From Candidatus Levyibacteriota bacterium (GTDB lineage: Bacteria; Patescibacteriota; Microgenomatia; Levybacterales; UBA12049): DNA of 64,000 nucleotides. The stretch's first letter is position 1; every line of letters begins with the position of its first letter. The DNA lies in NCBI GenBank assembly GCA_016432345.1, contig CP066685.1:624236-688235 (forward strand), read 5' to 3'. Position numbers and translations under genes: made by a program. Of this stretch, positions 36,905 through 50,134 are shown in pieces. The notes under the pieces are model-generated. The model saw only the letters and a list, made by a program, of their open reading frames with translations, made no database searches and was not told the DNA's origin.

Positions 36905-38107
36905 TTAGAGATGTTTGTTGATATATTTGACGAAGCGATGCAAGCCCTCTCGGAGGGTGTCTTCTGCATAACAGTAGGTAATGCGGACATGATTTTCTCC
37001 TCTCTTTCCGAATGCGCTGCCCGGAACAAGCGCAACACCTGCTTTTTCCACCATTTCAAAGCAAAATTTAAAGTCATCGATTGGTTTTTTGAATTTTGGA
37101 AAAATATAGTATGCGCCTTCTGGAGCAGAAAATTCTAATTTATCAGTCTTACTTAATTCTTCTATACAAATTTGCCTTCTCTTTTCGTATTCCTTTTTGA
37201 AGCGCAATATCTCATTCTTTGGGCCGTTGATAGCCGCAATCGCTCCATATTGAGAAGCGGCAGTGGGGCACGTTACCAGCGAATCGTGAATTTTAAAGAT
37301 TTGGGAAGCAAGTGTTTTATTGGCAACCAAATATCCAATTCTCCATCCTGTCATCGAATAGGATTTTGATACGCCAAAAACAGAAATTGTCCGATCTGCA
37401 ACTTCCGGAAAACTGGCAGTGCTAAAATGTTCCCGTCCATCGTAGAGAAAATATTCATATATTTCATCACTTATAATATACAAATTATGTTTTAGGGCAA
37501 TACGGACAATCTCTTTAAGCTCGGCCTTGGTAAACACTTTTCCGGTTGGATTGCAGGGGTTGCAAAAAAGAATCGCTTTGGTGTGTCTATTTATTGCTTT
37601 TTCTATGCGTGCAGGATCGAGCACCCAGCCTTTTGATGTTTCTTGTAATGGAACAAAAGTTGGTGATTTTCCGCCCAGCGCAATTTTTACTTGGGTAATA
37701 TGCGAAGCGTAATCTGGGGTTAAAACAATCATTTCATCATCTGGATCCAATAACGTCATAAAAACTGCCATAAGCCCCTCTATGCCACCATGCGTAACAA
37801 TTATTTGCTCTTTCTCGACCACGATGCCATTATCTTTTTTGAGTTTATTAACAATTGCAGCGCGCAGTGGATCAATGCCAAACCCAATGGTATATTTATC
37901 GGTGAGGTTTTTATCCATTGCATCTTTGATAGCGTTTTTAATGTAATCTGGGGTAAAAAAAGAAGGTGTGCCTTGAGCAAGAGAAACAACGTCTTTTAAG
38001 GAGCTTGCCAAATTCTGCACTCGTTTGATAGCCGAAACCTCGATTGAAGAAACCACAGAGGAAACTCCTTTTAAACCATGCGTCTTTTTTTTGTCTGTTT
38101 GTTTCAT
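36905..38107 (-). CDS. class I/II pyridoxal-phosphate aminotransferase (aspartate aminotransferase-like)
   Basis: 400 aa. PLP-lysine motif GVSKSYSMTGWRIGY and NPCNPTG. Confidence 0.9.
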   Translation of the reverse strand: MKQTDKKKTHGLKGVSSVVSSIEVSAIKRVQNLASSLKDVVSLAQGTPSFFTPDYIKNAIKDAMDKNLTDKYTIGFGIDPLRAAIVNKLKKDNGIVVEKEQIIVTHGGIEGLMAVFMTLLDPDDEMIVLTPDYASHITQVKIALGGKSPTFVPLQETSKGWVLDPARIEKAINRHTKAILFCNPCNPTGKVFTKAELKEIVRIALKHNLYIISDEIYEYFLYDGREHFSTASFPEVADRTISVFGVSKSYSMTGWRIGYLVANKTLASQIFKIHDSLVTCPTAASQYGAIAAINGPKNEILRFKKEYEKRRQICIEELSKTDKLEFSAPEGAYYIFPKFKKPIDDFKFCFEMVEKAGVALVPGSAFGKRGENHVRITYCYAEDTLREGLHRFVKYINKHL

Positions 38108-38489: not shown

Positions 38490-39329
38490 CTAAAAAGTTT
38501 TAGGATCAACATTTTTATTCATTGCAAGTTTTAGTACCGCTTGTGCTAAAGAATCAACAGGATCAATAAAAGGAACTGTCTTGTAACGACCTTTTAACGC
38601 AGGTGGAATTTCGGTGCAGCCTCCAATAATTACCTCTGCTCCTCTTGCTGAAACAAGATAATCCGCAGCTTCTGTTAGCAGATGTATTGATGTATTAGAA
38701 ACAGTTGTGCCAGTTGCCTTAACCCCAAAGCCAGTGTCGTATATTGCCGACATTACAGCATTTTGTTCTGGTGATCCTAAATCAAGATTTATTGGGAAAA
38801 TCCCAGCATCTGTTACTGCTTTTGTGTACAAACCTGTCATCATTGTACCATCGGTCCCCAAAATGCCAACACGTTCTGCATTCGGATGTTTTTCCTTTAT
38901 TTCCGCGACGGCAGATCCCATAAGCGGCACCCATGGGATTGGCAAATAAGGCTCTAAATCCTCCCGCCATGCATGAGCGGTATTGCAAATGACAACAAAA
39001 AAATCAAAACCCTCTTTATCTGCTTGTTGCGCAATTGCCAATATTCTTCCGCCTACTTCGTAATAGCTGTTTGGGTTGCCAGCTGCCTGTTTTTTTAGGG
39101 CGTCTGTTCTATCGGTAATTGATGTCGCGCTTACAAGCCCATAACCTGGATGATCCTGATCTTTTGTTGCAGATGGGTTTGCTGTAAGCAGCGCCTCGAG
39201 AAGCGGGATATGGGCTAATGGCCCAAGACCACCAACAACAAGAGGAACACGCACCTGCCTTGGTATACGAATGGTTTCTGCTAACCCTTTATTTGCAGAT
39301 TCTAAAAACTTTTCGTGAACACCTCCCAT
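38490..39329 (-). CDS. Asp/Glu racemase-family protein (aspartate racemase-like)
   Basis: 279 aa with two catalytic-Cys motifs, VVICNTAH and IGGCTEIP. Confidence 0.8.
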   Translation of the reverse strand: MGGVHEKFLESANKGLAETIRIPRQVRVPLVVGGLGPLAHIPLLEALLTANPSATKDQDHPGYGLVSATSITDRTDALKKQAAGNPNSYYEVGGRILAIAQQADKEGFDFFVVICNTAHAWREDLEPYLPIPWVPLMGSAVAEIKEKHPNAERVGILGTDGTMMTGLYTKAVTDAGIFPINLDLGSPEQNAVMSAIYDTGFGVKATGTTVSNTSIHLLTEAADYLVSARGAEVIIGGCTEIPPALKGRYKTVPFIDPVDSLAQAVLKLAMNKNVDPKTF

Positions 39330-39426
39330 AATGCAAAATACAACTTCTACACTAATATTCAGGTCTTAATATGTCGATGACAATTCTGTCAGGAAAGCTG
39401 ACAAAAGCTGTGATAGAATCATTTCA

Positions 39427-41457
39427 GTGATTAGAGAAACCAACCAGTTTCCAACACTGTTTAAGAAATACCGGCTGCGCGCGGAGTTTGCCACTTTTTC
39501 TGAATTGGGAATGGCGCTTGCAGAGAAAGGTTTAATCTACGAAAACAGCATCTTTTCCCACTGGCAAAAGGGGGATAGGTCTCCAAATAGACCCACGATT
39601 ATTAAGCTCATTGAAATTTTTGTAGAAAGGCAGAGTATAAATACACTTGGTGAAGCCAACGGTTTTTTAGAATCAGTTGGAGAGGGCTACCTTACCGAAA
39701 AAGAAAGAGAAAAAATACAATTTAGCGCATCGGGAAATGTTCCATTTCAAGTGCCAAGTCAAATAGATAACTTTACCGGCAGAGAAGTTCTCATTAAGAG
39801 AATAACAAAAGAAATTGACCTAGGAAACATTCTTTTAATTCACGGTGCTGCGGGAGTAGGAAAGAGCGCATTGGCAATAAAACTAGGACATTTACTTAAG
39901 GATAGATACAAAGACGGGGTTTTATGGTACAAAATTGAAAAAGACAATATCATGGATATTTTTCTCTCAATTGCCCGAATATTTGGAGAAGATATAAGTA
40001 GCATTAATGATAAACAAGTCAGAGCAACTGTTGTCAGATCAATACTTACAAGTAAAAATGTATTATTATTTTTAGATAGCGCAGAATTGTCTAATGACAT
40101 TCATTTATTAGTACCTAATTCTCAATTTTGTACAATGATTATTACTTCACAAAAAAATTCCCTTAAAACTCCAATACGCTATATTGATATTAGGCTTGAA
40201 GCTTTTACAGATAAGGAGATATTATTTCTCTTTAAAGAAGTCTTAAAAGATAAATATCCTCGAAATAACCAAGAAAGTATTTTAAAAATTGCAAAAACAT
40301 TTGGAAATCTTCCCTTGGCTTTGCATATTCTTGCAAGACAACTTCTACATTCGAAAGTACCCCTGGCTCAACTATCAAAAGCTCTCCATCAAGAAACTAA
40401 CAAAAATCTCTATTCTGCTATTGCCATGAGCTACAAAAAACTAGATAACAAGATGCAATCTATACTTCTCTCTATATCTATATTTAAAGGGAAAGATTTT
40501 TCAATAAAATCAATTGCGTATATTAATGGTCTTGCAATATCTGCGACAACAGAGATATTACAAAATCTTACCGATTTTTCTCTTATCGAACATTCAACGA
40601 AAGGTAAATACAGAATACATCCTGCAATACGGGATTTTGTTAGAGATAAATTAGATTATCCTCGATCATCGTATCTTGTATTGATTGCTACCATCATTTT
40701 TATTTTTTTTACTATTTGGTGGATTTATTTACAGCTATTTGTAGATAAACCCAACATCATGTATCAAATTTTTGCAACTACTTATTGTATGATGGCAATT
40801 TATGGTGGGATTTATGGCATACATACATCTTTTAAATGGGGAGGTTTAAAAACTCTGTTGGGCAAAGCTACTTTTATGTTTTCCATGGGATTGTTTATGC
40901 AGGTTTTTGGACAGGTGGCTTACGCATATTACGCTATTTTCAAACATATTGTGGTTCCTTATCCGTCTGTTGGAGATTTGGGATTTTTTGGAACAATTCC
41001 TTTTTATACGTATGGAGTATTCCTGCTTGCAAAATCTTCCGGGATAAAATTAGGTATCCAATCTTTTCGAAAAAAAATAATAGCTTTAATCATTCCTGGC
41101 CTGGTACTTATACTTTACTATTTAAGTTTTTTTCAAAATTATCAATATGATTTCAGTAACCCAATAAAAATGTTTTTTGATATTGCTCAACCATTAGGTA
41201 ATGCAGTTTATGTTTCAGCAGCAATAATCACATTTATTTTTTCAAGGACGGTGTTAGATGGAATTATGCAGTCCAAAGCGTTTTTACTATTGGTTGCCCT
41301 TATTATACAGTCTATTGCAGATTATATATTTTTATATAAATCAAGCACATATTATTCAGGAAACTATATGGATTTTATCTATTTAATATCTTATTTTGTT
41401 ATGACACTGGCACTTTTACATCTAAAATCACTCCAGGTAAAAATAAAGAATATATAG
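39427..41457 (+). CDS. HTH + NB-ARC STAND NTPase fused to a C-terminal multi-TM domain
   Basis: 676 aa. N-terminal XRE-like HTH, Walker A HGAAGVGKSALA, Walker B VLLFLDSAE and the NB-ARC GxP motif FGNLPLALHILA. A ~270-aa polytopic domain follows, paralogous to 44279-45094. Confidence 0.8.
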   Translation: MIRETNQFPTLFKKYRLRAEFATFSELGMALAEKGLIYENSIFSHWQKGDRSPNRPTIIKLIEIFVERQSINTLGEANGFLESVGEGYLTEKEREKIQFSASGNVPFQVPSQIDNFTGREVLIKRITKEIDLGNILLIHGAAGVGKSALAIKLGHLLKDRYKDGVLWYKIEKDNIMDIFLSIARIFGEDISSINDKQVRATVVRSILTSKNVLLFLDSAELSNDIHLLVPNSQFCTMIITSQKNSLKTPIRYIDIRLEAFTDKEILFLFKEVLKDKYPRNNQESILKIAKTFGNLPLALHILARQLLHSKVPLAQLSKALHQETNKNLYSAIAMSYKKLDNKMQSILLSISIFKGKDFSIKSIAYINGLAISATTEILQNLTDFSLIEHSTKGKYRIHPAIRDFVRDKLDYPRSSYLVLIATIIFIFFTIWWIYLQLFVDKPNIMYQIFATTYCMMAIYGGIYGIHTSFKWGGLKTLLGKATFMFSMGLFMQVFGQVAYAYYAIFKHIVVPYPSVGDLGFFGTIPFYTYGVFLLAKSSGIKLGIQSFRKKIIALIIPGLVLILYYLSFFQNYQYDFSNPIKMFFDIAQPLGNAVYVSAAIITFIFSRTVLDGIMQSKAFLLLVALIIQSIADYIFLYKSSTYYSGNYMDFIYLISYFVMTLALLHLKSLQVKIKNI

Positions 41458-41528
41458 TTTATTCATGTGATAAATTAGTCAGAAAACTTGACAGAAAAGC
41501 AGTTTTATGTGATGCTAAATATATACAA

Positions 41529-42017
41529 ATGGAAATTATCATAACAACTGGCACTGGATACGGTAGAACCCCACTTTCTGCATTTGATGCCGCGTTAAAA
41601 GACGCAGGAGTATACAATTTTAATTTGGTCACACTTTCTTCAATAATCCCCATCGGTTCAACAATAAAAGTTAAAAAATTTGAATCAAATCCACAAGAAT
41701 ATGGATACAGGCTTTATGTGGTAAAAGCCGAAATGCGAAGCCGTGAATCAGGAAAATTCATTGGCGCAGCAGTCGGTTGGGTACAACTCCCAGATGGCAG
41801 AGGAGTATTTGTAGAACACGAAGAAATCGGCGAAACAAAAAATGCTGTCGAGTCTAACTTGACAAAAGAGGTAAAAATGTCTTTAAGCGACCTTTGTAAA
41901 TTCCGCAATTTTCACACCACCGAACAAGATATGAAAATGAAAATAAATGTGATAAAAGTTACCGATTCACCGGCATCTTGCCTAGTTCTTGCCGTCTATA
42001 AATCAGAATCATGGTAA
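41529..42017 (+). CDS. pdaD: pyruvoyl-dependent arginine decarboxylase
   Basis: 162 aa. TGTGYGRTPLSAFDAALKDAGVYNFNLVTLSSIIP includes the self-cleaving Ser-Ser site. Confidence 0.85.
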   Translation: MEIIITTGTGYGRTPLSAFDAALKDAGVYNFNLVTLSSIIPIGSTIKVKKFESNPQEYGYRLYVVKAEMRSRESGKFIGAAVGWVQLPDGRGVFVEHEEIGETKNAVESNLTKEVKMSLSDLCKFRNFHTTEQDMKMKINVIKVTDSPASCLVLAVYKSESW

Positions 42018-42904
42018 ATGATTGGTTTTATATTGCGCTTATTGCACCTGCAATTTGGGCATTAGTGAATATCATCGATGATAATCTTATTCGAGGGGTT
42101 TATAGAAACCCATACTTTGGTACAATAATTTCTGGTTTTTTTGCTCTCTTGCCTGTTTTAAGCGTATTTTTTATCCCCATCTCTATTCCCTCTTTGCCTG
42201 TTATTATTTTTTCTTTTCTTGCCGGGTTCCTGGTTGTTTCTGCCTACTGGTTTTATTTTAAAGCGCTTATGAGCGATTCTCCTTCTATCATTGTTGCTTT
42301 GTGGACTCTAACCGCAGCAATGCTTCCATTTTTAGCTTTTGTATTTTTACAAGAAACTTTACAATTTAAGCAATACGTAGGTTTTGTGATCATTCTTGTA
42401 GCCTCAATGATACTTTCTGTAGTAAATATTAAAAAACTTACTTTTTCAAAAACATTCTTTTTTATGATTATAGCTTCTATATTTATTGCGATAACTTCTA
42501 TTCTAGAGAAATATATTTATACACATATTGATTTTTGGAGCGGGTTTATTTTTATATCGATTGGTATGGGGTTGGGGGCGCTCTTTTTCAGTATCTCTTT
42601 TAAAGCTGGTAGAATGTTTTTTAAGGAATTTCAAGGAAAATTTAGAAAATACATCTGGATATTTCTCTTTTCGGAGCTTTTGAATATTCTAGCAGTATTT
42701 TTTTCAAATTTGGCGATAAGTAAAGGACCAGTCTCTCTCGTCAAAGTTGTTGAAGGAATGCAGCCATTTTATGTATTATTATATGCGATAGTATTCTATC
42801 CATTCTTTCCAAACTATTTTCGAGAAGCAACTCAAGAGAATAAATTAAAAAAAGTACTGTGTATGATGATAATAATACTGGGACTTTATTTTATTTATAA
42901 CTAA
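42011..42904 (+). CDS. EamA/DMT-superfamily transporter
   Basis: 297 aa with ~10 TM helices in two halves. Overlaps the pdaD stop. Confidence 0.7.
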   Translation: MVNDWFYIALIAPAIWALVNIIDDNLIRGVYRNPYFGTIISGFFALLPVLSVFFIPISIPSLPVIIFSFLAGFLVVSAYWFYFKALMSDSPSIIVALWTLTAAMLPFLAFVFLQETLQFKQYVGFVIILVASMILSVVNIKKLTFSKTFFFMIIASIFIAITSILEKYIYTHIDFWSGFIFISIGMGLGALFFSISFKAGRMFFKEFQGKFRKYIWIFLFSELLNILAVFFSNLAISKGPVSLVKVVEGMQPFYVLLYAIVFYPFFPNYFREATQENKLKKVLCMMIIILGLYFIYN

Positions 42905-42931
42905 TTTAGTCCATATTGTGATAAACATCGT

Positions 42932-44233
42932 ATGAAAAAAAATCCTATTTCGATGGAAAAATATTTTACCCCAGGTTTAAAAACAAAACCCGGAGTTCAC
43001 ATCGGCTCCCAAACGCACCCTCTCTTTCATGGGATTGCCAAAGAACAAGCTTATGAAGGATATTATTTAGGTGCTGCAGGTGAAGGAGATGTTGCCATCG
43101 TTCGTAATTTCGAACAGACATATATTGATTACTGGAAGAATCTTATAGGTGATCACCATATTATAAACTTAACACATACAGATCCTGGAGCGTATCTAAC
43201 GCAGTCGATTTTGGATGATCCAAAAGTTATCGAAGATATAAAGCATCATATGGATCCTAAATCCCGATTACATGTTTTTTCTCCCACACGCCTGGAGCAA
43301 AAGTTGGCAGACAAACTTGGGATTCCTCTACATGGCAAGCCGGAAATCGGTGAGCGGTTTGGCACAAAAAGCGGAACGCGGCGACTTGCTAAAAAATACG
43401 GGATCCCTATGGCTCCAGGTTTTGTTTGCAAAAGTGTAAGAGACGTCGAAAAAGCTTTTAATGAACTCAAAAAATACTTTAGGGGAATCGTTATCAAATA
43501 TGATTATTCACTTGGAGGTTATTTCAGTAAACGAGTAGAAACATCCAATAAAATAAAAATAAAAGAATTATTAGATGAAATAATCGGCAGAAAGTTCCGC
43601 GAGGGCAAAGACACTGTTGTTGTTGAGGGTTGGCTAAAAAGCAAAGCTACACCCTGCGCCCATATTGAGATACTTGAAGGTCAGGATCCTGTTATATGCA
43701 CAGGCTGGCAGCAAATAGTTGACGTGGATGGTATTTCGCGTATAGGCGCCGGTCCCCTTACGCTTTCTGATAGAGCAATGAAGTCCTTTTTATCTGCTGT
43801 TAACAAGCTAGCATGGGCGTTGAAAGACAAAGGCGCTTGCGGTTCTTTCGGTCCTGATTTTCTTATCACAGCCGATGATGAAACGCAAATGCCGCCAGAT
43901 ACAGCTGTCTTACTTGAATTAAATGGACGAATCCCAATGACAGCAATTGCATTTGAAATTATCCAAAATGTTCGAGGTAAAATTGGATCAGGCTTTTGGG
44001 CGCAGCACCTCACGCTTAAATCTCCCCTAACATTTGAAGAGTTGGCTGAAAAATTATCCAAAGAAGGCATTTTAATACAAAAAAAAGATAAAAGAGCAAG
44101 AGGAATAGTTCCTTTCAATACTGGTCTTTTACCTTGGAAAATGCTCGATCTAGTCGTCATGGCAGATACGTGGGATGAAACCGTAGTAGTTATGCGGAAA
44201 GCACAACAAGTTTTACGTGCTTTAGATGCTTGA
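42932..44233 (+). CDS. ATP-grasp-like ligase (pre-ATP-grasp + ATP-grasp)
   Basis: 433 aa. GTKSGTRRLAKKYGIPMAPG, VIKYDYSLGG and VLLELNGRIP resemble the ATP-grasp lid and Mg-site strands. Confidence 0.5.
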   Translation: MKKNPISMEKYFTPGLKTKPGVHIGSQTHPLFHGIAKEQAYEGYYLGAAGEGDVAIVRNFEQTYIDYWKNLIGDHHIINLTHTDPGAYLTQSILDDPKVIEDIKHHMDPKSRLHVFSPTRLEQKLADKLGIPLHGKPEIGERFGTKSGTRRLAKKYGIPMAPGFVCKSVRDVEKAFNELKKYFRGIVIKYDYSLGGYFSKRVETSNKIKIKELLDEIIGRKFREGKDTVVVEGWLKSKATPCAHIEILEGQDPVICTGWQQIVDVDGISRIGAGPLTLSDRAMKSFLSAVNKLAWALKDKGACGSFGPDFLITADDETQMPPDTAVLLELNGRIPMTAIAFEIIQNVRGKIGSGFWAQHLTLKSPLTFEELAEKLSKEGILIQKKDKRARGIVPFNTGLLPWKMLDLVVMADTWDETVVVMRKAQQVLRALDA

Positions 44234-44278
44234 CTTTATTTTCATAATGCTCTACCGTAAGATATAGACCATAAAAAT

Positions 44279-45094
44279 ATGTGGGAAACAATTAAAAATG
44301 AGTGGCAGGCAAAAGTCACAATTGTTCTCTACCTCCTCCTTACTCTCTGGTGGATTCTTGATCCAATCGTCCTGGGCCAGAAGCATGAACGAATCATTGG
44401 TGATTTTGCGAATATCTACTTTATTATGCCTCTTTGGGGTGGCATATGGGGAATTGCAGTATCTAGAAAATGGGGTGGCCATAAAAGCCTAATGGGAAAA
44501 GCAATTTTAATGTTTTCACTAGGATTACTTGCACAAGTGTTTGGAGAGAATGCTTATGCATATTATTCGTTCATTTTGAAAATTGCAATTCCTTATCCAT
44601 CTTTAGGCGATCTGGGTTATTTTGGCAGCATTCCATGTTACATTTATGGTACTTACCTTCTTGCAAAAGCTTCAGGCACAAGTATAAAACTTAAGAGTTT
44701 AGGGAATAAGCTGCAAGCTATTATCATTCCGCTCGTAATGTTGACTATAGGTTATGTTCTATTTTTGCGAGGATATGAATTCGACTGGTCAAATCCCTTG
44801 AGAGTATTTCTTGATTTTGGCTATCCTCTAACTCAAGCAATTTATATCTCTCTTGCTCTTCTAACATATCTTCTTTCAAAAGAAGTTCTGGGCGGAATTA
44901 TGAAAAGCAAGATATTGTTTATTCTTTTTGCATTACTTATTCAATTTTTATCCGACTATAATTTTCTTTATCAGGTAAGCAGAGAAACGTGGGTAACAGG
45001 AGGATATGGAAACATGTTGTACTTAAGTGCTTATTTTACTATGACGCTTGCTTTGATTCAGTTAGGAACTGTGTTGAAAAAACTAAAGGAGTAA
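44279..45094 (+). CDS. polytopic membrane protein, paralog of the STAND C-terminal domain
   Basis: 271 aa. It aligns by eye with residues ~400-676 of the 39427 gene. Example: WGGHKSLMGKAILMFSLGLLAQVFGENAYAYY...PYPSLGDLGYFGSIP against WGGLKTLLGKATFMFSMGLFMQVFGQVAYAYY...PYPSVGDLGFFGTIP. Confidence 0.65.
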   Translation: MWETIKNEWQAKVTIVLYLLLTLWWILDPIVLGQKHERIIGDFANIYFIMPLWGGIWGIAVSRKWGGHKSLMGKAILMFSLGLLAQVFGENAYAYYSFILKIAIPYPSLGDLGYFGSIPCYIYGTYLLAKASGTSIKLKSLGNKLQAIIIPLVMLTIGYVLFLRGYEFDWSNPLRVFLDFGYPLTQAIYISLALLTYLLSKEVLGGIMKSKILFILFALLIQFLSDYNFLYQVSRETWVTGGYGNMLYLSAYFTMTLALIQLGTVLKKLKE

Positions 45095-45101
45095 ATTCAT
45101 T

Positions 45102-45380
45102 ATGGATATTTTTGGGCAAATGGCGGAAAAGATTATTGAGCAGCAGGAGAGTATTATTGGGCCTGTAGCTTTGGAACAGGCTCGTAAAGTTCATGGGCTT
45201 AATGTAGATTGGCAAAAGCATGAGGTGGCTTTTGATGGTAACAAGACAGACATTGTCGAACATCTGGTTGAGCAGTATCAAGGGCTTTTTGGGCAAGCAT
45301 CGGTTGAAGCCTGCAAAGAGGCAGTACGGGGAATTATTTCTGAAGTTCCTCAAAACCAAATTCCCGCTTTACTCCGCTAA
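45102..45380 (+). CDS. hypothetical small protein
   Basis: 92-aa ORF between the membrane paralog and the histidine kinase. Confidence 0.4.
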   Translation: MDIFGQMAEKIIEQQESIIGPVALEQARKVHGLNVDWQKHEVAFDGNKTDIVEHLVEQYQGLFGQASVEACKEAVRGIISEVPQNQIPALLR

Positions 45381-45405: not shown

Positions 45406-46815
45406 ATGGATATTTCCGATACTGCCCAAGGTTTTACAGATGTTCCAACTATTCCCCCTCCTACAAACACAGCATTGGCTGTTGAATTGGCCCACGTTAC
45501 CCAGGAAATGTATAAAAAAAATTTCGAACTGGTAGAACGTAATAAAGCGCTTTCCATCCTTCGAAAAATCCACGAGATTATTTTAAGTTCTGTTACCGAT
45601 ACCAAACAAATTGCCGAACAAGTTGCCAACACTGTTGCCACTGAGGCAGAGTTTAAGGCTGTGATTATTTTAATGATTGATAAAGATAAGAATGTCTTAA
45701 CCCGCCTGGCAATGTCGCAAACACAGCCGCTGGCCAAATCGGAAGTCGTGCTTGGCAGGCCTTTTTTTCCAGAAAATATTTCGTTAATCGAAGAAGAAAA
45801 TCTGGTTATTAAAGCAATAAAAGGAAAAAACATTGAAATAACACACGATCTTTTGGAAGTACTAAAGCCTTATGCCTTCCAAAATCAAATAGATCAGCTT
45901 CAAACTGTTTTACAAATAAAGTCTTCTCTTATTTACCCCTTTATTGTGAGAGACGAAGTTATTGGGGCAATGATTATTTGTATCGGCGAAAGCGAGGCGC
46001 TTTTGTTTCAGTATCAGCAGGATCTTATCGAACGATTATCGGGTGTAGTTGGCATTGCCATAGATAATGCTCTTTTATACAAAGAACTGCAGCAGGCAAA
46101 TGAAATGCTGCAGCAGCTTGATAAATTAAAAGACGAATTTGTGTCTTTGGCATCGCATGAACTTCGGACCCCGATGACAGCTATCAAATCATATCTGTGG
46201 ATGGCCCTTTCTGGCAAAGGCGGAGTGTTGCCGGAAAAATTAAAATTTTATTTGGACAGAGCGTATAAATCAACCGATCGGCTTATAAAGTTGGTCAATG
46301 ACATGCTTAATGTTTCACGGATCGAATCGGGAAGAATAATCTTATCTTTAAAAGAGGTAAAATATAATGATTTAATAAACGAGGTGATAGCAGAGATTAC
46401 GCCCCGGGCGCAGGAACTGGGTATTCATATTGCTTTTTCGCCTGTTAATTTATCGGATGTTTCTGCCGATCCTGATAAATTAAAAGAGGTGCTTATTAAT
46501 CTCATTGGCAATTCTCTTAAATTTACGCCACAGGGAGGAATTATTACTATTTCCGCTTTGCCGCAAAACGGCATGATATTAACCTCTGTTAAAGATACAG
46601 GCAAAGGAATTGCCAAAGAAGATGTGCCTAAGCTTTTTCAAAAATTTGCCATGCTTGGCAATAATTATTTAGTGAAACAAGATACTCAAGGAACGGGTTT
46701 AGGACTTTATATATCCAAATCACTTATCGAACTTCATGGAGGAAAAATTTGGGTAGATTCAGAGGGGATAGATAAAGGAACAACGTTTTACTTTACCTTA
46801 AAATATGCTACTTAG
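45406..46815 (+). CDS. cytoplasmic sensor histidine kinase (GAF-like + HisKA + HATPase_c)
   Basis: 469 aa. H-box SHELRTPMTAI, N-box NLIGNSLKFT, G-boxes DTGKGI and GTGLGLYISK. No TM helix. Confidence 0.9.
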   Translation: MDISDTAQGFTDVPTIPPPTNTALAVELAHVTQEMYKKNFELVERNKALSILRKIHEIILSSVTDTKQIAEQVANTVATEAEFKAVIILMIDKDKNVLTRLAMSQTQPLAKSEVVLGRPFFPENISLIEEENLVIKAIKGKNIEITHDLLEVLKPYAFQNQIDQLQTVLQIKSSLIYPFIVRDEVIGAMIICIGESEALLFQYQQDLIERLSGVVGIAIDNALLYKELQQANEMLQQLDKLKDEFVSLASHELRTPMTAIKSYLWMALSGKGGVLPEKLKFYLDRAYKSTDRLIKLVNDMLNVSRIESGRIILSLKEVKYNDLINEVIAEITPRAQELGIHIAFSPVNLSDVSADPDKLKEVLINLIGNSLKFTPQGGIITISALPQNGMILTSVKDTGKGIAKEDVPKLFQKFAMLGNNYLVKQDTQGTGLGLYISKSLIELHGGKIWVDSEGIDKGTTFYFTLKYAT

Positions 46816-47182
46816 ACAAATAAACTTCTACTTCTTTAATTAAATCACCAGGAGTTAATTGACTTTTAATAAGGTATCCATCGCCTAATTCAAGCGCTTG
46901 TTTTATTTCTTCATCCTTGTCTAAATTTGTTAAAAAAATTAATCTTTTATTAGGAGTCATTGTTCCTTCTGTTTTAATTTTTTTCATTATAGAAAGACCA
47001 TCATTTTTGGGTAAAATAATATCTAATAGAACCAAATCATACCCGCCCTGTTTTATTTTTTGATACGCTTCCTCTCCATCTACAGCTATATCTATATTGT
47101 ACCCTTCGGAGGTTAAAGTTTCTACATATACTTCCCGCAAAAATTCATCGTCCTCCACCACCAAAATTTTAGCCTTATCCAT
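46808..47182 (-). CDS. single-domain (CheY-like) response regulator
   Basis: 124 aa from the ATG at 47182 (MDKAKILVVEDDEF...DLVLLDIILP...). The tracked longer start adds a non-homologous extension. Confidence 0.9.
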   Translation of the reverse strand: MDKAKILVVEDDEFLREVYVETLTSEGYNIDIAVDGEEAYQKIKQGGYDLVLLDIILPKNDGLSIMKKIKTEGTMTPNKRLIFLTNLDKDEEIKQALELGDGYLIKSQLTPGDLIKEVEVYLSK

Positions 47183-47254
47183 TATGCCTTGAGAGTAACA
47201 CTGCTTTTTGCAAAAGTCAAGAGGAATGATATAATAAAAGATCGCAAAAATTAT

Positions 47255-50134
47255 ATGGATAAAATAATTATTAAAGGCGCTCGGGAACACAACCTAAAAA
47301 ACATTGATTTGGAAATTCCCAAAAACAAGTTTGTGGTTTTTACCGGGCTTTCCGGCAGTGGAAAATCATCGCTTGCTTTTGACACCATTTACGCCGAAGG
47401 ACAACGCCGTTATGTCGAATCCCTTTCTTCTTATGCTCGGCAGTTTTTGGGAATGATGAAAAAGCCCGATGTAGATGTGATTGACGGTTTGTCTCCGGCA
47501 ATCTCGATAGATCAAAAAAGCACCTCTCACAATCCGCGGTCTACTGTTGGCACAATTACCGAAATTTACGATTACTTGCGGCTTTTGTTTGCCAGAGTGG
47601 GACACCCGCATTGTTCCAACTGCGGTCGGGAAATTTCCAAATTTTCAAAAGAGCAAATAACAGAAAACATTTTTGATTTAGCAAAAAACGCTGCCAGTAA
47701 AGCTGGTATTCGATTACTGCTTCTTGCTCCTCTGGTTAAAGATCGAAAAGGTGAATACACCCAACTCTTTTTGGATTTACGCAAACAAGGATATAAAAAA
47801 GTTAGGATTGATAAAGTAATTTACAATATCAATGAAAAATTTACTCTTATTAAAACCAATAAACATACTATAGAACTTGTTGTTGATGCAGTTGTTTTAA
47901 GTAAACTTACCGATAGAGATAGAATAGCAAGCGGCGTTGAACAAGCCCTTCGATATGGAAACGGCGAAATGATTGTGGGGAAAATACAAGATAAAGGATT
48001 TTCCATACCAGAAATACCAACAAAAATAGAAGACATACTATTTTCCGAAAAATTTGCCTGTCCTGTTTGCAACATTTCCATCCCAGAAATAACACCCAGA
48101 ATTTTTTCCTTTAATACTCCGCACGGCGCGTGTCCAACTTGTAATGGACTGGGAACAATTCTGACCGTGGATAAAGATTTGGTTTTTAATAATAACCTTT
48201 CTATCAACGAAGGGGGCATACTCCCTTTTCAAAATATAGACGAACAGGACACTTGGTTTTCCAGAACATTTAAAACGTTTTGCCAGGATAATGGCATTTC
48301 TTTGTCTGTTAGTCTTTCTTTGTTACCCAAAGAAAAAAAAGAGTTAGTTTTTAATGGAACAGGAGAAAAAGAATATGCGGTTATGGGAAAAAATAGACAT
48401 GGGCATGACACAGTTATTCACGAACCATTCCGAGGAATACTTTTTGAATTAAAACAAAGGCACCACGAGACAGAATCGGTATTTTTAAGATCACAGATTG
48501 AAAAATTTATGCGTTATGAATTATGTGGTGAATGCCACGGACATAGACTAAAAAAAGAAGCGCTTGGTGTTGCGATCAATGGTAAATCAATTGTTCAAGT
48601 ATGTGATATGCCAATTGATGAAGCCTTTATTTTTATTGATAATCTTACCAATCTGCTTTCTACAAAAGAGCAGGAAATCGGCAAAATTGTTATTAAAGAA
48701 ATTAAAACGAGACTTAAATTTTTAAGAGATGTTGGCTTGTCTTATTTAACTCTTTCCCGCGGCGCGCAAACACTTTCCGGCGGAGAAGCTCAACGCATAC
48801 GGCTTGCCTCGCAAATTGGCAGCGGATTAACAGGAGTGTTGTATGTATTAGACGAGCCATCAATTGGACTTCATCAAAAAGATAACGAAAAGCTTATCCA
48901 GACACTTAAAAAGTTGCGGGATCTAGGAAATACAGTTATTGTGGTCGAACACGACGAAGAAACAATGCAATCTTGCGATATGATTGTGGATTTTGGTCCT
49001 GGCGCTGGCGAAGGCGGCGGATTTGTTGTTGCGCAAGGAACACCAGAGGAAATAATGAAAAATGAAAAGTCTTTGACTGGCAAATATCTATCCAAAAAGA
49101 AAAAGATAGAAGTTAAAAATTCTATGAAGGATAAATCAACCAACCAATTAACCATCTATGGCGCCAAAGAACATAATCTAAAAAACATTGACGTCTCATT
49201 TCCACTTGGTAAATTTATTGTGATAACAGGTGTTTCGGGCAGTGGTAAATCAACGTTAATTCATGACATTTTGTATCACGCGCTGATGCAAAAAATAAAT
49301 CCATATCACAGGCAAAAACCAGGAGCATTTGCAAAAATGCAAGGTGATGAATATATTAGAAATGTTTTTTTAATTGACCAATCGCCAATTGGCAGAACGC
49401 CCAGAAGCAATCCAACAACATATACAGGCTGTTTCTCGTATATTCGAGACTTGTTTGCTAGCACCAAAGAAGCAAAATTAAAAGGATACGAACCTGGAAG
49501 ATTTTCTTTTAATGTTAAAGGTGGCAGATGCGAGGCTTGCGAGGGAGAAGGTCAAATTAAAATAGAGATGCAGTTTCTACCAGATGTCTATATCACCTGC
49601 GAGGTTTGCAATGGCAAACAATACACCAAAGAAGCATTAAGCGTTTTGTTTAATGGCAAAAGTATTGCCGATGTGTTAGCAATGAGCGTACAGGAAGCAT
49701 TATCCTTTTTCTCTTTTGTGCCAAACCTTTCTCATAAATTACAAATTCTAAACGATGTTGGTTTGTCCTACATTAAACTTGGTCAACCGGCGCCAACCCT
49801 ATCTGGCGGAGAAGCGCAACGGGTAAAACTGGCATCAGAATTGGCAAAAAGAGGAAAAGATGCCATATATCTTTTAGATGAACCAACCACTGGTCTTCAT
49901 TTTGCCGATTTAGAAAAACTTCTCCAAGTACTGCGCCGTCTGGTTGATATTGGCAATACTGTCATAGTTATTGAGCATAATTTAGATATGATTAGAAACG
50001 CAGATTATATTATTGACCTAGGTCCCGAAGGCGGGGACAGCGGCGGAAACATTGTTGGCGTTGGCAAACCTTCTGCTATTATGAATATTAAAACTTCTTA
50101 TACAGGACAATTTCTTAAAAAAACTCTACAATAA
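47255..50134 (+). CDS. uvrA: excinuclease ABC subunit A
   Basis: 959 aa from the ATG at 47255 ([22 protein letters not shown]). It has two ABC modules ([18 protein letters not shown]), Zn-finger Cys pairs and LSGGEAQR signatures. Confidence 0.97.

Follow-up and report, generated by a model that had tools for sequence, protein, structure and literature searches.

Bacterial regulators such as MalT, the AfsR/SARP-NB-ARC-TPR proteins and GutR join an NB-ARC/STAND switch to a DNA-binding domain and a C-terminal sensor arm. ToxR and CadC instead tether a cytoplasmic N-terminal DNA-binding domain to the membrane, and CadC regulates cadBA, an operon for a decarboxylase and a transporter. Here we describe a locus that resembles both designs, found in a 64,000-nucleotide (nt) stretch of the genome of a Candidatus Levyibacteriota bacterium (contig CP066685.1, positions 624,236 to 688,235; this whole stretch is called the window, and coordinates are given in its own numbering). 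A STAND protein of 676 amino acids (aa) carries a membrane domain of eight transmembrane (TM) helices, the 8-TM domain, where the sensor arm would be expected, and a free-standing paralogue of that domain is encoded downstream, beside a soluble histidine kinase. We think it probable that the locus encodes a membrane-anchored, autoregulated STAND regulator and a receptor-adaptor-kinase pathway, which share one sensor module and flank genes of amine metabolism and export.

Compared with MalT, AfsR and GutR, the sensor arm here is an integral 8-TM domain, which makes the regulator membrane-embedded, and the DNA-binding module is putatively Cro/POU-specific-like rather than of the LuxR or SARP type. 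As in ToxR and CadC, the putative DNA-binding domain is N-terminal, cytoplasmic and tethered to the membrane, and the logic of CadC-cadBA, a regulator beside an operon for an amino-acid decarboxylase and a transporter, is matched as well. Unlike those proteins, however, the regulator has no OmpR-type winged helix and no periplasmic sensor; an NB-ARC module is interposed and the membrane part is polytopic. The second half of the locus recalls the MCP-CheW-CheA-CheY and Pst-PhoU-PhoR pathways, where the membrane protein is likewise separate from a kinase that lacks a membrane sensor, and where a small adaptor and a receiver-only regulator complete the set. The kinase, in contrast to CheA, belongs to the ordinary HisKA/HATPase enzymes and carries a GAF domain; the small protein, the 92-aa product of an open reading frame (ORF) that we call orf92, has no detectable relation to CheW or PhoU, and the proposed TM receptor is unrelated to MCPs. 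The usual two-component system differs in having a kinase with its own membrane or periplasmic sensor and a regulator with an output domain, both of which are missing here. Polytopic membrane inputs on signalling outputs are also known from the HisKA_7TM, 7TMR-DISM and MASE families, whereas the present domain has eight helices, both termini in the cytoplasm and no consistent sequence match. Finally, MprF and other aminoacyl-phosphatidylglycerol synthases share with most relatives of the locus a cytosolic synthase beside a polytopic membrane protein, but the window has no LPG_synthase_C domain, its TM protein has no detected similarity to MprF, and its partners are signalling genes.

The ultra-small bacteria of the candidate phyla radiation (CPR, or Patescibacteria) have tiny genomes with the lowest density of sensor kinases reported (PMC10805038), and they were left out of the statistics in the main comparative survey of conflict-related STAND systems (PMC7159879). 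We found no description of the architecture helix-turn-helix (HTH)-NB-ARC-TM in Pfam, NCBIfam, PADLOC, the PDB or the searchable literature. A preliminary description of the window, made from its sequence, had called this architecture unusual; it proved to be common within Patescibacteria, though unannotated and with no function assigned.

Domain structure of the STAND protein

The STAND gene lies at 39427-41457 (+) and the free TM gene, encoding 271 aa, at 44279-45094 (+), both where the preliminary description had placed them; their products are 100% identical to the metagenome-assembled genome (MAG) entries HYV37_03495 and HYV37_03515. Residues ~110-410 of the 676-aa protein (39754..40656, +) form an NB-ARC/STAND NTPase with helical and winged-helix subdomains. 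The Pfam model PF00931 scored 48.6 bits against a gathering score of 23.5 (residues 122-343, E=8.3e-13), and the same segment aligned to the NB-ARC parts of the AfsR, HaaT and FxSxx-TPR models of NCBIfam with E values of up to 2.9e-26, all NCBIfam scores of the protein being far under the equivalog cutoffs. An AlphaFold2 (AF2) model (predicted local distance difference test, pLDDT, 84.5) has the domain order of Apaf-1, CED-4 and NLRs, in which helical and winged-helix domains come after the P-loop fold. Foldseek searches with this model returned Apaf-1 (E=3.6e-11), a STAND-TPR protein, plant NLRs, CED-4 and MalT, and comparison with the NB-ARC of NRC1 gave a TM-score of 0.69 and a root-mean-square deviation of 4.6 A over 343 columns. 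The motifs are Walker A GAAGVGKS, Walker B LLFLD(S), GNLPLAL and an MHD-like RIHP, and residues G143, K146, D217, P296 and H398 are invariant across 51 sequences. The NB-ARC module with its Walker A, Walker B and GNLPLAL motifs, named already in the preliminary description, is thus borne out by both the Pfam and the Foldseek matches.

The winged helix ends near residue 410 of the model, and the first TM helix begins at residue 414, so that the C-terminal 8-TM domain (residues 414-676; 40666..41457, +), the proposed sensor module, starts only 3-4 residues past it. No match to TPR, WD40 or LRR repeats was obtained in the C-terminus, which is taken up by the 8-TM domain instead. Sister proteins with the same N-terminal module (N-module) and NB-ARC have TPR repeats at exactly this position, and the membrane domain therefore stands in place of the sensor arm, as had been proposed from the sequence. 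The best ~120 homologues of the 676-aa protein all consist of N-module, NB-ARC and a C-terminal TM domain; subtypes of ~680, ~684 and ~768 aa have TM domains 53-73%, ~40% and ~30% identical to that of the query, respectively.

The eight-helix membrane domain

The TM domain of the STAND protein and the free 271-aa protein are 45% identical over 259 aa (BLASTP, E=1e-76), a similarity far beyond chance, and the free gene is indeed the paralogue it had been taken for; within the window tblastn located no copies other than these two. A recent local duplication was considered and rejected: with its orthologues in other genomes the free copy shares 58-89% identity and the ~680-aa fused group 53-73%, in each case more than the 45% between the two copies. 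The free protein has 799 word-indexed homologues, and a profile of free and fused copies, run against representatives of 50%-identity clusters, gave 1,930 matches at E<=0.001 and 239 at E<=1e-30. All relatives whose lineage could be identified are Patescibacteria. No Pfam, NCBIfam or PADLOC model covers the domain. The HisKA_7TM family, to which the preliminary description had pointed, matched one of 22 members (E=0.013), and no other family matched consistently, so this suggestion was dropped.

The AF2 model of the 271-aa protein (pLDDT 88.8, predicted TM-score 0.89) shows eight long helices. Foldseek comparison of this model with the PDB returned generic 7-TM bundles only (best E=0.05, TM-score <=0.5); no internal repeat was detected (hhalign probability 0.7%), and there was no similarity to the neighbouring EamA transporter of the drug/metabolite transporter (DMT) superfamily. 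Loop charges fit the positive-inside rule with both termini inside, a topology that agrees with the cytoplasmic modules fused at either end of the domain. The polar residues that are conserved (Y93, Y106-P107-S108, D111, Y159, Y166, D169, D179, Q222, D226, Y248 and Y252) sit mainly towards the outside, in the outer loops and the outer half of the bundle. When 117 free copies were compared with 49 fused ones, which is a small sample, 66 positions were conserved in both groups. These include the outer pocket, with D111, D179, D226, Y93, Y106, Y159, Y166, Y252, Q86 and Q222 among the jointly conserved residues; D169 and Y248, conserved in the smaller alignment, fail the stricter both-group test. 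Five positions are sharply group-specific, and four of these are cytoplasmic, at the ends of TM4 and TM6 and in loop L6-7. Because the outer pocket is common and the differences are mainly cytoplasmic, the paralogues probably respond to one cue, or to two similar ones, on the extracytoplasmic side or in the outer leaflet; the direction of the free/fused comparison fits one signal class read by two output routes.

The domain is also found in other surroundings. It is fused to the N-module without an NB-ARC, and to a winged HTH of the TrmB type followed by two TM domains. Four proteins of 806-844 aa (P0241, P0244, P0246 and P0252) have two tandem 8-TM copies after an N-terminal region of ~250 aa, which opens with a TrmB-type winged helix in P0241 (1.4e-16) and has no Pfam match in P0244.

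The N-terminal module and its predicted operator

Residues 1-96 of the STAND protein (39427..39714, +), which the preliminary description had called an XRE-like HTH, form a five- or six-helix bundle in the AF2 model (helices 3-18, 24-33, 40-48, 55-67, 74-82 and 91-96). Pfam gave no match for any of 16 members of this N-module, even at E<=10. A marginal full-length match to the POU-specific domain (E=0.013, profile positions 3-85) and a weak hhalign match to hand-entered Cro/C1 HTH sequences (E=0.008, probability 5%) join the helix bundle and the palindrome described below in suggesting that the N-module is a probable HTH of the Cro/C1/POU-specific-like kind and a candidate DNA-binding domain. 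The XRE-like label can thus be kept as a tentative assignment, with indirect support, outside any Pfam family. The N-module is mobile across architectures: its partners are NB-ARC-8TM, NB-ARC-TPR, a single TM helix with SBP_bac_3, HD_3, or the 8-TM domain directly, and it often occurs alone as a protein of ~100 aa. Its combination with one TM helix and SBP_bac_3 has a layout like that of ToxR and CadC.

A perfect 17-bp palindrome, TGTCAGGAAAGCTGACA, occupies 39387..39403; the STAND-TM gene starts 24 nt downstream of it, and a divergent racemase gene starts 57 nt away. With 31.1 bits this predicted operator (operator 1) is the top site of the window. A second site (operator 2), AGTCAGAAAACTTGACA, with two mismatches and 20.2 bits, is found at 41477..41493, within the 71-nt gap between the STAND-TM stop and the start of pdaD. 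These two are the only sites of at least 10 bits in the window, where 0.24 would be expected. The consensus is TGTCAG-N5-CTGACA (17 bp), and the palindrome stands about 25 nt (15-32 nt) upstream of N-module genes in dozens of loci. In 1.86 Mb of fetched loci the pattern TGTCA-N7-TGACA matched 68 times, compared with 3.05 +/- 1.5 times in shuffles. A position weight matrix built on 45 distinct sites and applied with a threshold of at least 17 bits found 82 sites in the fetched loci against ~0.2 expected; 58 of the 82 are directly upstream of genes that start with the N-module, whatever follows in the protein. We also considered that the palindrome might be a general promoter motif and judged this unlikely, as only 6 of the 82 sites fall in 80 loci of the free-TM cassette and the other 76 in N-module loci. 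Genes for N-module fusions to 1TM-SBP_bac_3, to an HD_3 phosphohydrolase or to NB-ARC-TPR (L092:1218-2321, L105:4365-5486, L139:9720-10691, L140:12-935, L106/L113/L121) all have the same palindrome upstream.

Sites before the cargo, the genes between the two TM copies, are less regular. In one relative (L087) a site near-identical to operator 2 lies 36 nt upstream of pdaD, and in four further loci (L060, L100, L122 and L089) sites directly follow STAND-TM genes. A strong site was present in the interval from STAND-TM to cargo in 3/22 cases, as against 10/1,764 control intergenic regions. From this interval count, autoregulation would be the general feature, whereas only the window genome and a minority of its relatives have a separate cargo operator; in the other loci regulator and cargo may simply share a transcript.

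Several features of the surrounding DNA are worth recording. A divergent gene begins ~44-68 nt from the palindrome in many loci. In the window this is the Asp/Glu-type racemase gene at 38490-39329 (-), whose closest model is the cysteate racemase CuyB with a score under the cutoff; together with an aminotransferase gene at 36905-38107 (-) it diverges from the STAND-TM gene, the intergenic region and its operator being common to both sides. In another locus (L093) the palindrome is upstream of a homologue of this aminotransferase gene. Across the 45 sites a conserved CA dinucleotide occurs 5-6 nt 5' of the palindrome on the gene-proximal strand (39381-39386 in the window), and an A/T-rich, GATAT-like stretch follows; given these two features, the element would be larger and asymmetric, possibly overlapping promoter hexamers. 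Operator 2 is flanked by a direct repeat, TTYATGTGAT, whose two copies (41462-41471 and 41504-41513) are 42 nt apart. TGTGAT also follows operator 1 (39409-39414), in the form of an extended -10-like TGnTAGAAT (39411-39419); if the latter is the promoter, the STAND-TM mRNA would be nearly leaderless. Scanning 38.3 to 47.6 kb for sigma-70 promoters gave little information, as the 41 promoter-like sites compare with an expectation of 31 +/- 6; no clean terminator was found between the genes of this region.

The free copy and its partners

The free 8-TM gene, whose product we propose as the membrane receptor of the kinase pathway, is followed after 7 nt by orf92 (45102..45380, +), encoding a soluble protein that would act as adaptor between receptor and kinase. 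Next comes a gene for a GAF-HisKA-HATPase histidine kinase (45406..46815, +; HisKA 1.1e-17, HATPase_c 5.9e-27 in Pfam), in which hydropathy analysis found no TM segment, and then, on the opposite strand, a gene for a single-domain receiver response regulator (46808..47182, -; Response_reg 6.1e-21). A cytoplasmic histidine kinase and a response regulator downstream of the second TM copy, as described at first, are therefore present. The 92-aa protein, like the N-module, drew no match from Pfam, NCBIfam or PADLOC, and for it a profile search against PDB sequences gave noise only (ORC6, E=0.04). Response_reg spans residues 42-154 of the regulator's 160-aa ORF; the protein probably starts at Met37 (MDKAKILVVEDDE) and would then have ~124 aa and no output domain. 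In the mechanical ORF calls the regulator (46808-47290, -, GTG start, 160 aa) overlaps uvrA (47189-50134, +, TTG start) by ~100 nt, and both starts are probably over-extended. The kinase and regulator stops are convergent, with an 8-nt overlap.

We examined synteny around the free TM gene in 80 species-representative genomes, whose named lineages include Levy-, Davies-, Roizman-, Woese-, Gottesman-, Nomura-, Uhr-, Taylor-, Andersen-, Staskawicz- and Saccharibacteria. The conserved order is pdaD, EamA, LPG_synthase_C-like gene, TM, orf92, kinase, regulator. Directly downstream of the TM gene stands orf92 in 62/80 (62-75/80 across counts), followed by the GAF kinase in 56/80 (56-65/80 across counts), and a receiver-only regulator, with homologues of 110-147 aa, is found nearby in 34/80. 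On the other side an LPG_synthase_C-like gene (PF09924, 5.6e-25; the fold of the MprF C-terminus) adjoins the TM gene in 68/80 and is present in 75/80; pdaD (37/80) and EamA (43/80) are located further upstream. The median gap between TM and orf92 is 3.5 nt, and 24 TM-orf92 fusions were found. One protein (P0278) is a triple fusion, TM-orf92-GAF-HisKA-HATPase; another (in L030) joins TM, orf92 and a GAF-like part, and a third (in L081) an orf92-like part and a GAF kinase. These fusions join TM domain, orf92 and kinase, and the kinase itself lacks a membrane part; most simply, then, the TM protein would be its receptor and the orf92 product the coupling adaptor. The MAG records (GTDB representatives) of L003, L004, L006 and ~30 other loci are titled 'uncultured Gammaproteobacteria bacterium', which appears to be a default or erroneous label on typically patescibacterial loci.

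The preliminary description had listed the genes of the cluster without recognising the 92-aa ORF and the kinase as the primary partners of the free paralogue, and had missed that the slot adjoining it belongs, in most relatives, to the LPG_synthase_C-like gene and not to an ATP-grasp gene. The window itself has no LPG_synthase_C (tblastn E>1), and a gene for an ATP-grasp-like ligase (42932..44233, +; 433 aa) fills the slot, an arrangement also seen in the metagenome locus L081. The matches of this protein are to PreATP-grasp (8.8e-5, under the Pfam cutoff), the ATP-grasp peptide ligase 8ynd (1.5e-4) and PGM1 (0.27), which weakly suggests a relative of ATP-grasp peptide ligases. It looks as if a tRNA-dependent aminoacyl transferase had been replaced by an ATP-dependent, PGM1-like ATP-grasp ligase; the comparison involves the window (42932-44233), L081 and L012:7340-8299(-).

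Genes between the two copies

The other two genes between the copies in the window are pdaD and a transporter gene. The first (41529..42017, +) encodes a member of the pyruvoyl-dependent arginine decarboxylase family: the product matches Pfam PvlArgDC at 4.9e-28 with 98.5 bits, above the cutoff of 22.7, and scores 63.6 with TIGR00286, below the equivalog cutoff of 106.95; the LSS self-cleavage motif is seen in its sequence. The start of the EamA/DMT-family transporter gene (42011..42904, +; Pfam EamA 9.9e-11) overlaps the pdaD stop by 7 nt. The first two members of the cluster initially described as pdaD, DMT transporter and ATP-grasp enzyme are thereby upheld, and the third keeps a weak, sub-cutoff match.

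For the arrangement as a whole we used metagenome loci that were found with the N-terminal part and had at least 5 kb of downstream sequence. In 9/11 STAND-TM loci the free TM gene follows 1.6-8.8 kb downstream, so the bracketing of a metabolic cluster by two copies, noticed in the window, is recurrent; two STAND-TM paralogues are often in tandem. Conversely, only 3/36 long loci around the free cassette have a STAND-TM gene. From these two counts, the STAND fusion is an accessory addition to a widespread core. The genes between the copies vary among loci. The sets comprise pdaD-EamA-LPG_synthase_C; the ATP-grasp ligase (window and L081); AdoMet_dc with an NNMT/PNMT-type methyltransferase; EamA with an aldehyde dehydrogenase; EamA with a pyridoxal-phosphate-dependent Orn/Arg decarboxylase; an alpha-oxoamine-synthase-type aminotransferase with a GNAT protein or methyltransferase; and a class-I lysyl-tRNA synthetase (LysRS)-like gene (L085:2635-4107, tRNA-synt_1f 8.6e-42) with an aldehyde dehydrogenase and EamA. 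The theme is mostly amino-acid decarboxylation, amine modification or ligation, and a DMT exporter. The LysRS-like gene recalls the LysRS-MprF fusion LysX, and a four-TM protein of ~122-127 aa with no Pfam family recurs in the cargo beside methyltransferase genes (L084:5268-5636, L087:14318-14701).

Discussion

We propose that two pathways built on one CPR-specific 8-TM module flank, and probably control, the amine-metabolism and export operon. The 676-aa protein would be a membrane-anchored one-component STAND regulator in which the 8-TM domain replaces the TPR sensor. Perception of a signal would release the ADP/ATP switch of the NB-ARC; the released switch would drive oligomerisation in the plane of the membrane, and oligomerisation would in turn alter the occupancy, by the HTH-like module, of the palindrome at the regulator's own promoter and before the pdaD-EamA-ligase genes. 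The 271-aa paralogue would be the membrane receptor of the soluble GAF histidine kinase, coupled to it through the orf92 product, and the kinase would phosphorylate the receiver-only regulator. The analysis shows domain composition, paralogy, synteny, fusions, operator statistics and topology; we infer that receptor, adaptor and kinase make contact, that the N-module binds DNA, which way regulation runs and what kind of ligand is read. The idea of a sensing switch, put forward in the preliminary description, agrees with the fusions of the TM domain to the N-module, to N-module and NB-ARC, to the TrmB winged HTH, to orf92 and to orf92-GAF with or without the kinase.

Several points weigh against this proposal. 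Walker B lacks the second acidic residue (LFLDS), and ATP hydrolysis may therefore be slow or absent. The response regulator lacks an output domain, which leaves the kinase branch without an identified target. Foldseek returned no informative neighbour for the TM fold (best E=0.05), and the word 'sensor' is thus inferred from the partners alone. The HTH assignment rests on weak matches at E ~0.01 and an hhalign probability of 5%, together with co-localisation with the operator. A recognisable second operator precedes the cargo in only about one-quarter of related loci (3/22 at or above 17 bits, with two more just outside the scanned interval). Moreover, TTGACA forms part of the palindrome, which may therefore serve to some extent as a promoter element and not as a site for protein binding. 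Finally, the tight linkage to the LPG_synthase_C-like enzyme could mean an enzymatic or transport partnership.

This last point is the main support for the serious alternative, which we consider unlikely but well worth weighing: the main work of the 8-TM protein may be that of a transporter, flippase or membrane enzyme acting, as in a split MprF, on what the adjacent LPG_synthase_C-like or ATP-grasp ligase makes, for example an aminoacylated lipid or an amine conjugate, and signalling may be secondary. Its activity or flux might then be reported through the orf92 product to the kinase and, in the fused paralogue, to the NB-ARC, by analogy with BceAB-BceS, LysP-CadC and Pst-PhoU-PhoR. The occurrence of a different amide-forming ligase in the same slot in the window and L081 speaks for such a role, as does the LysRS-like gene in one cargo set, and the conserved charged intramembrane pocket could be a substrate site. 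On the other hand, the domain has neither internal repeat symmetry nor similarity to the EamA transporter, and no transporter, flippase or MprF chain appeared among the top Foldseek matches in the PDB. Moreover, the domain occurs in direct fusions to DNA-binding modules in which no enzyme takes part, and it is the ligase slot that varies while the core of TM, orf92 and kinase stays constant.

If the 8-TM domain is a receptor, the question of its cue arises. The pocket is acidic and aromatic and the cargo is amine-producing, which would suggest a cationic ligand. One candidate is an amine derived from agmatine by the genes between the copies; just as plausible as cues are pH, the charge of the envelope, or whatever the LPG_synthase_C-like or ATP-grasp enzyme makes. 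A more specific version, to which we give a rather low probability, holds that the 8-TM domain is a new receptor class for a self-made or host-derived cationic amine, that the cargo makes and exports this ligand, and that the STAND factor and the receptor-adaptor-kinase pathway are parallel readouts of an autocrine, quorum-like or episymbiont-to-host circuit.

GAF domains and NB-ARC modules can themselves bind small molecules, and the kinase has its own GAF domain, so one may ask whether the TM domain is a mere anchor or scaffold while these modules read signals in the cytoplasm. This appears improbable, as an anchor would need neither eight helices nor the invariant outward Asp, Tyr and Gln, and many of the 66 positions conserved across paralogues at ~45% identity are polar and intramembrane. 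Many STAND NTPases of bacteria serve in defence, and defence systems often use effectors that disrupt membranes, but the Avs-like role that the preliminary description had left open, with the STAND protein as an antiphage or abortive-infection sensor and its membrane domain as a pore-forming effector, can hardly be upheld, since PADLOC gave only sub-significant matches for the STAND protein (mad8 E=0.0016, AbiP 0.028), while the free TM protein, the ATP-grasp-like protein and the orf92 product matched nothing in it, the N-terminal effector position holds an HTH-like module with a conserved operator, the TM domain is also a conserved partner of kinase and adaptor, and the synteny with metabolic genes is stable across many Patescibacteria lineages, of a housekeeping type and unlike that of variable defence islands.

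The STAND switch, the tethering of a regulator to the membrane and the pairing of a kinase with an accessory receptor, on which the proposed regulator-receptor system draws, are known principles. No description was found, by contrast, of a STAND protein with a membrane sensor arm, of the 8-TM module, of the N-module and its operator or of the orf92 adaptor. The sensor arm of a STAND ATPase can be an integral membrane domain, which widens the design space of MalT/AfsR-type regulators. Three building blocks are found lineage-wide and combined in several architectures: a putative DNA-binding N-module with a predicted operator, an 8-TM input and a 92-aa adaptor. Because binding site, candidate pocket residues and partner proteins are specified, the signalling system is directly testable. 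CPR bacteria are thought to be largely host-dependent for lipids, and the locus bears on how they remodel their envelope, since it ties signalling both to the metabolism of amines and to an aminoacyl-transferase gene of the MprF-like kind. Altogether, the locus points to an unrecognised signalling system in bacteria with very few known.

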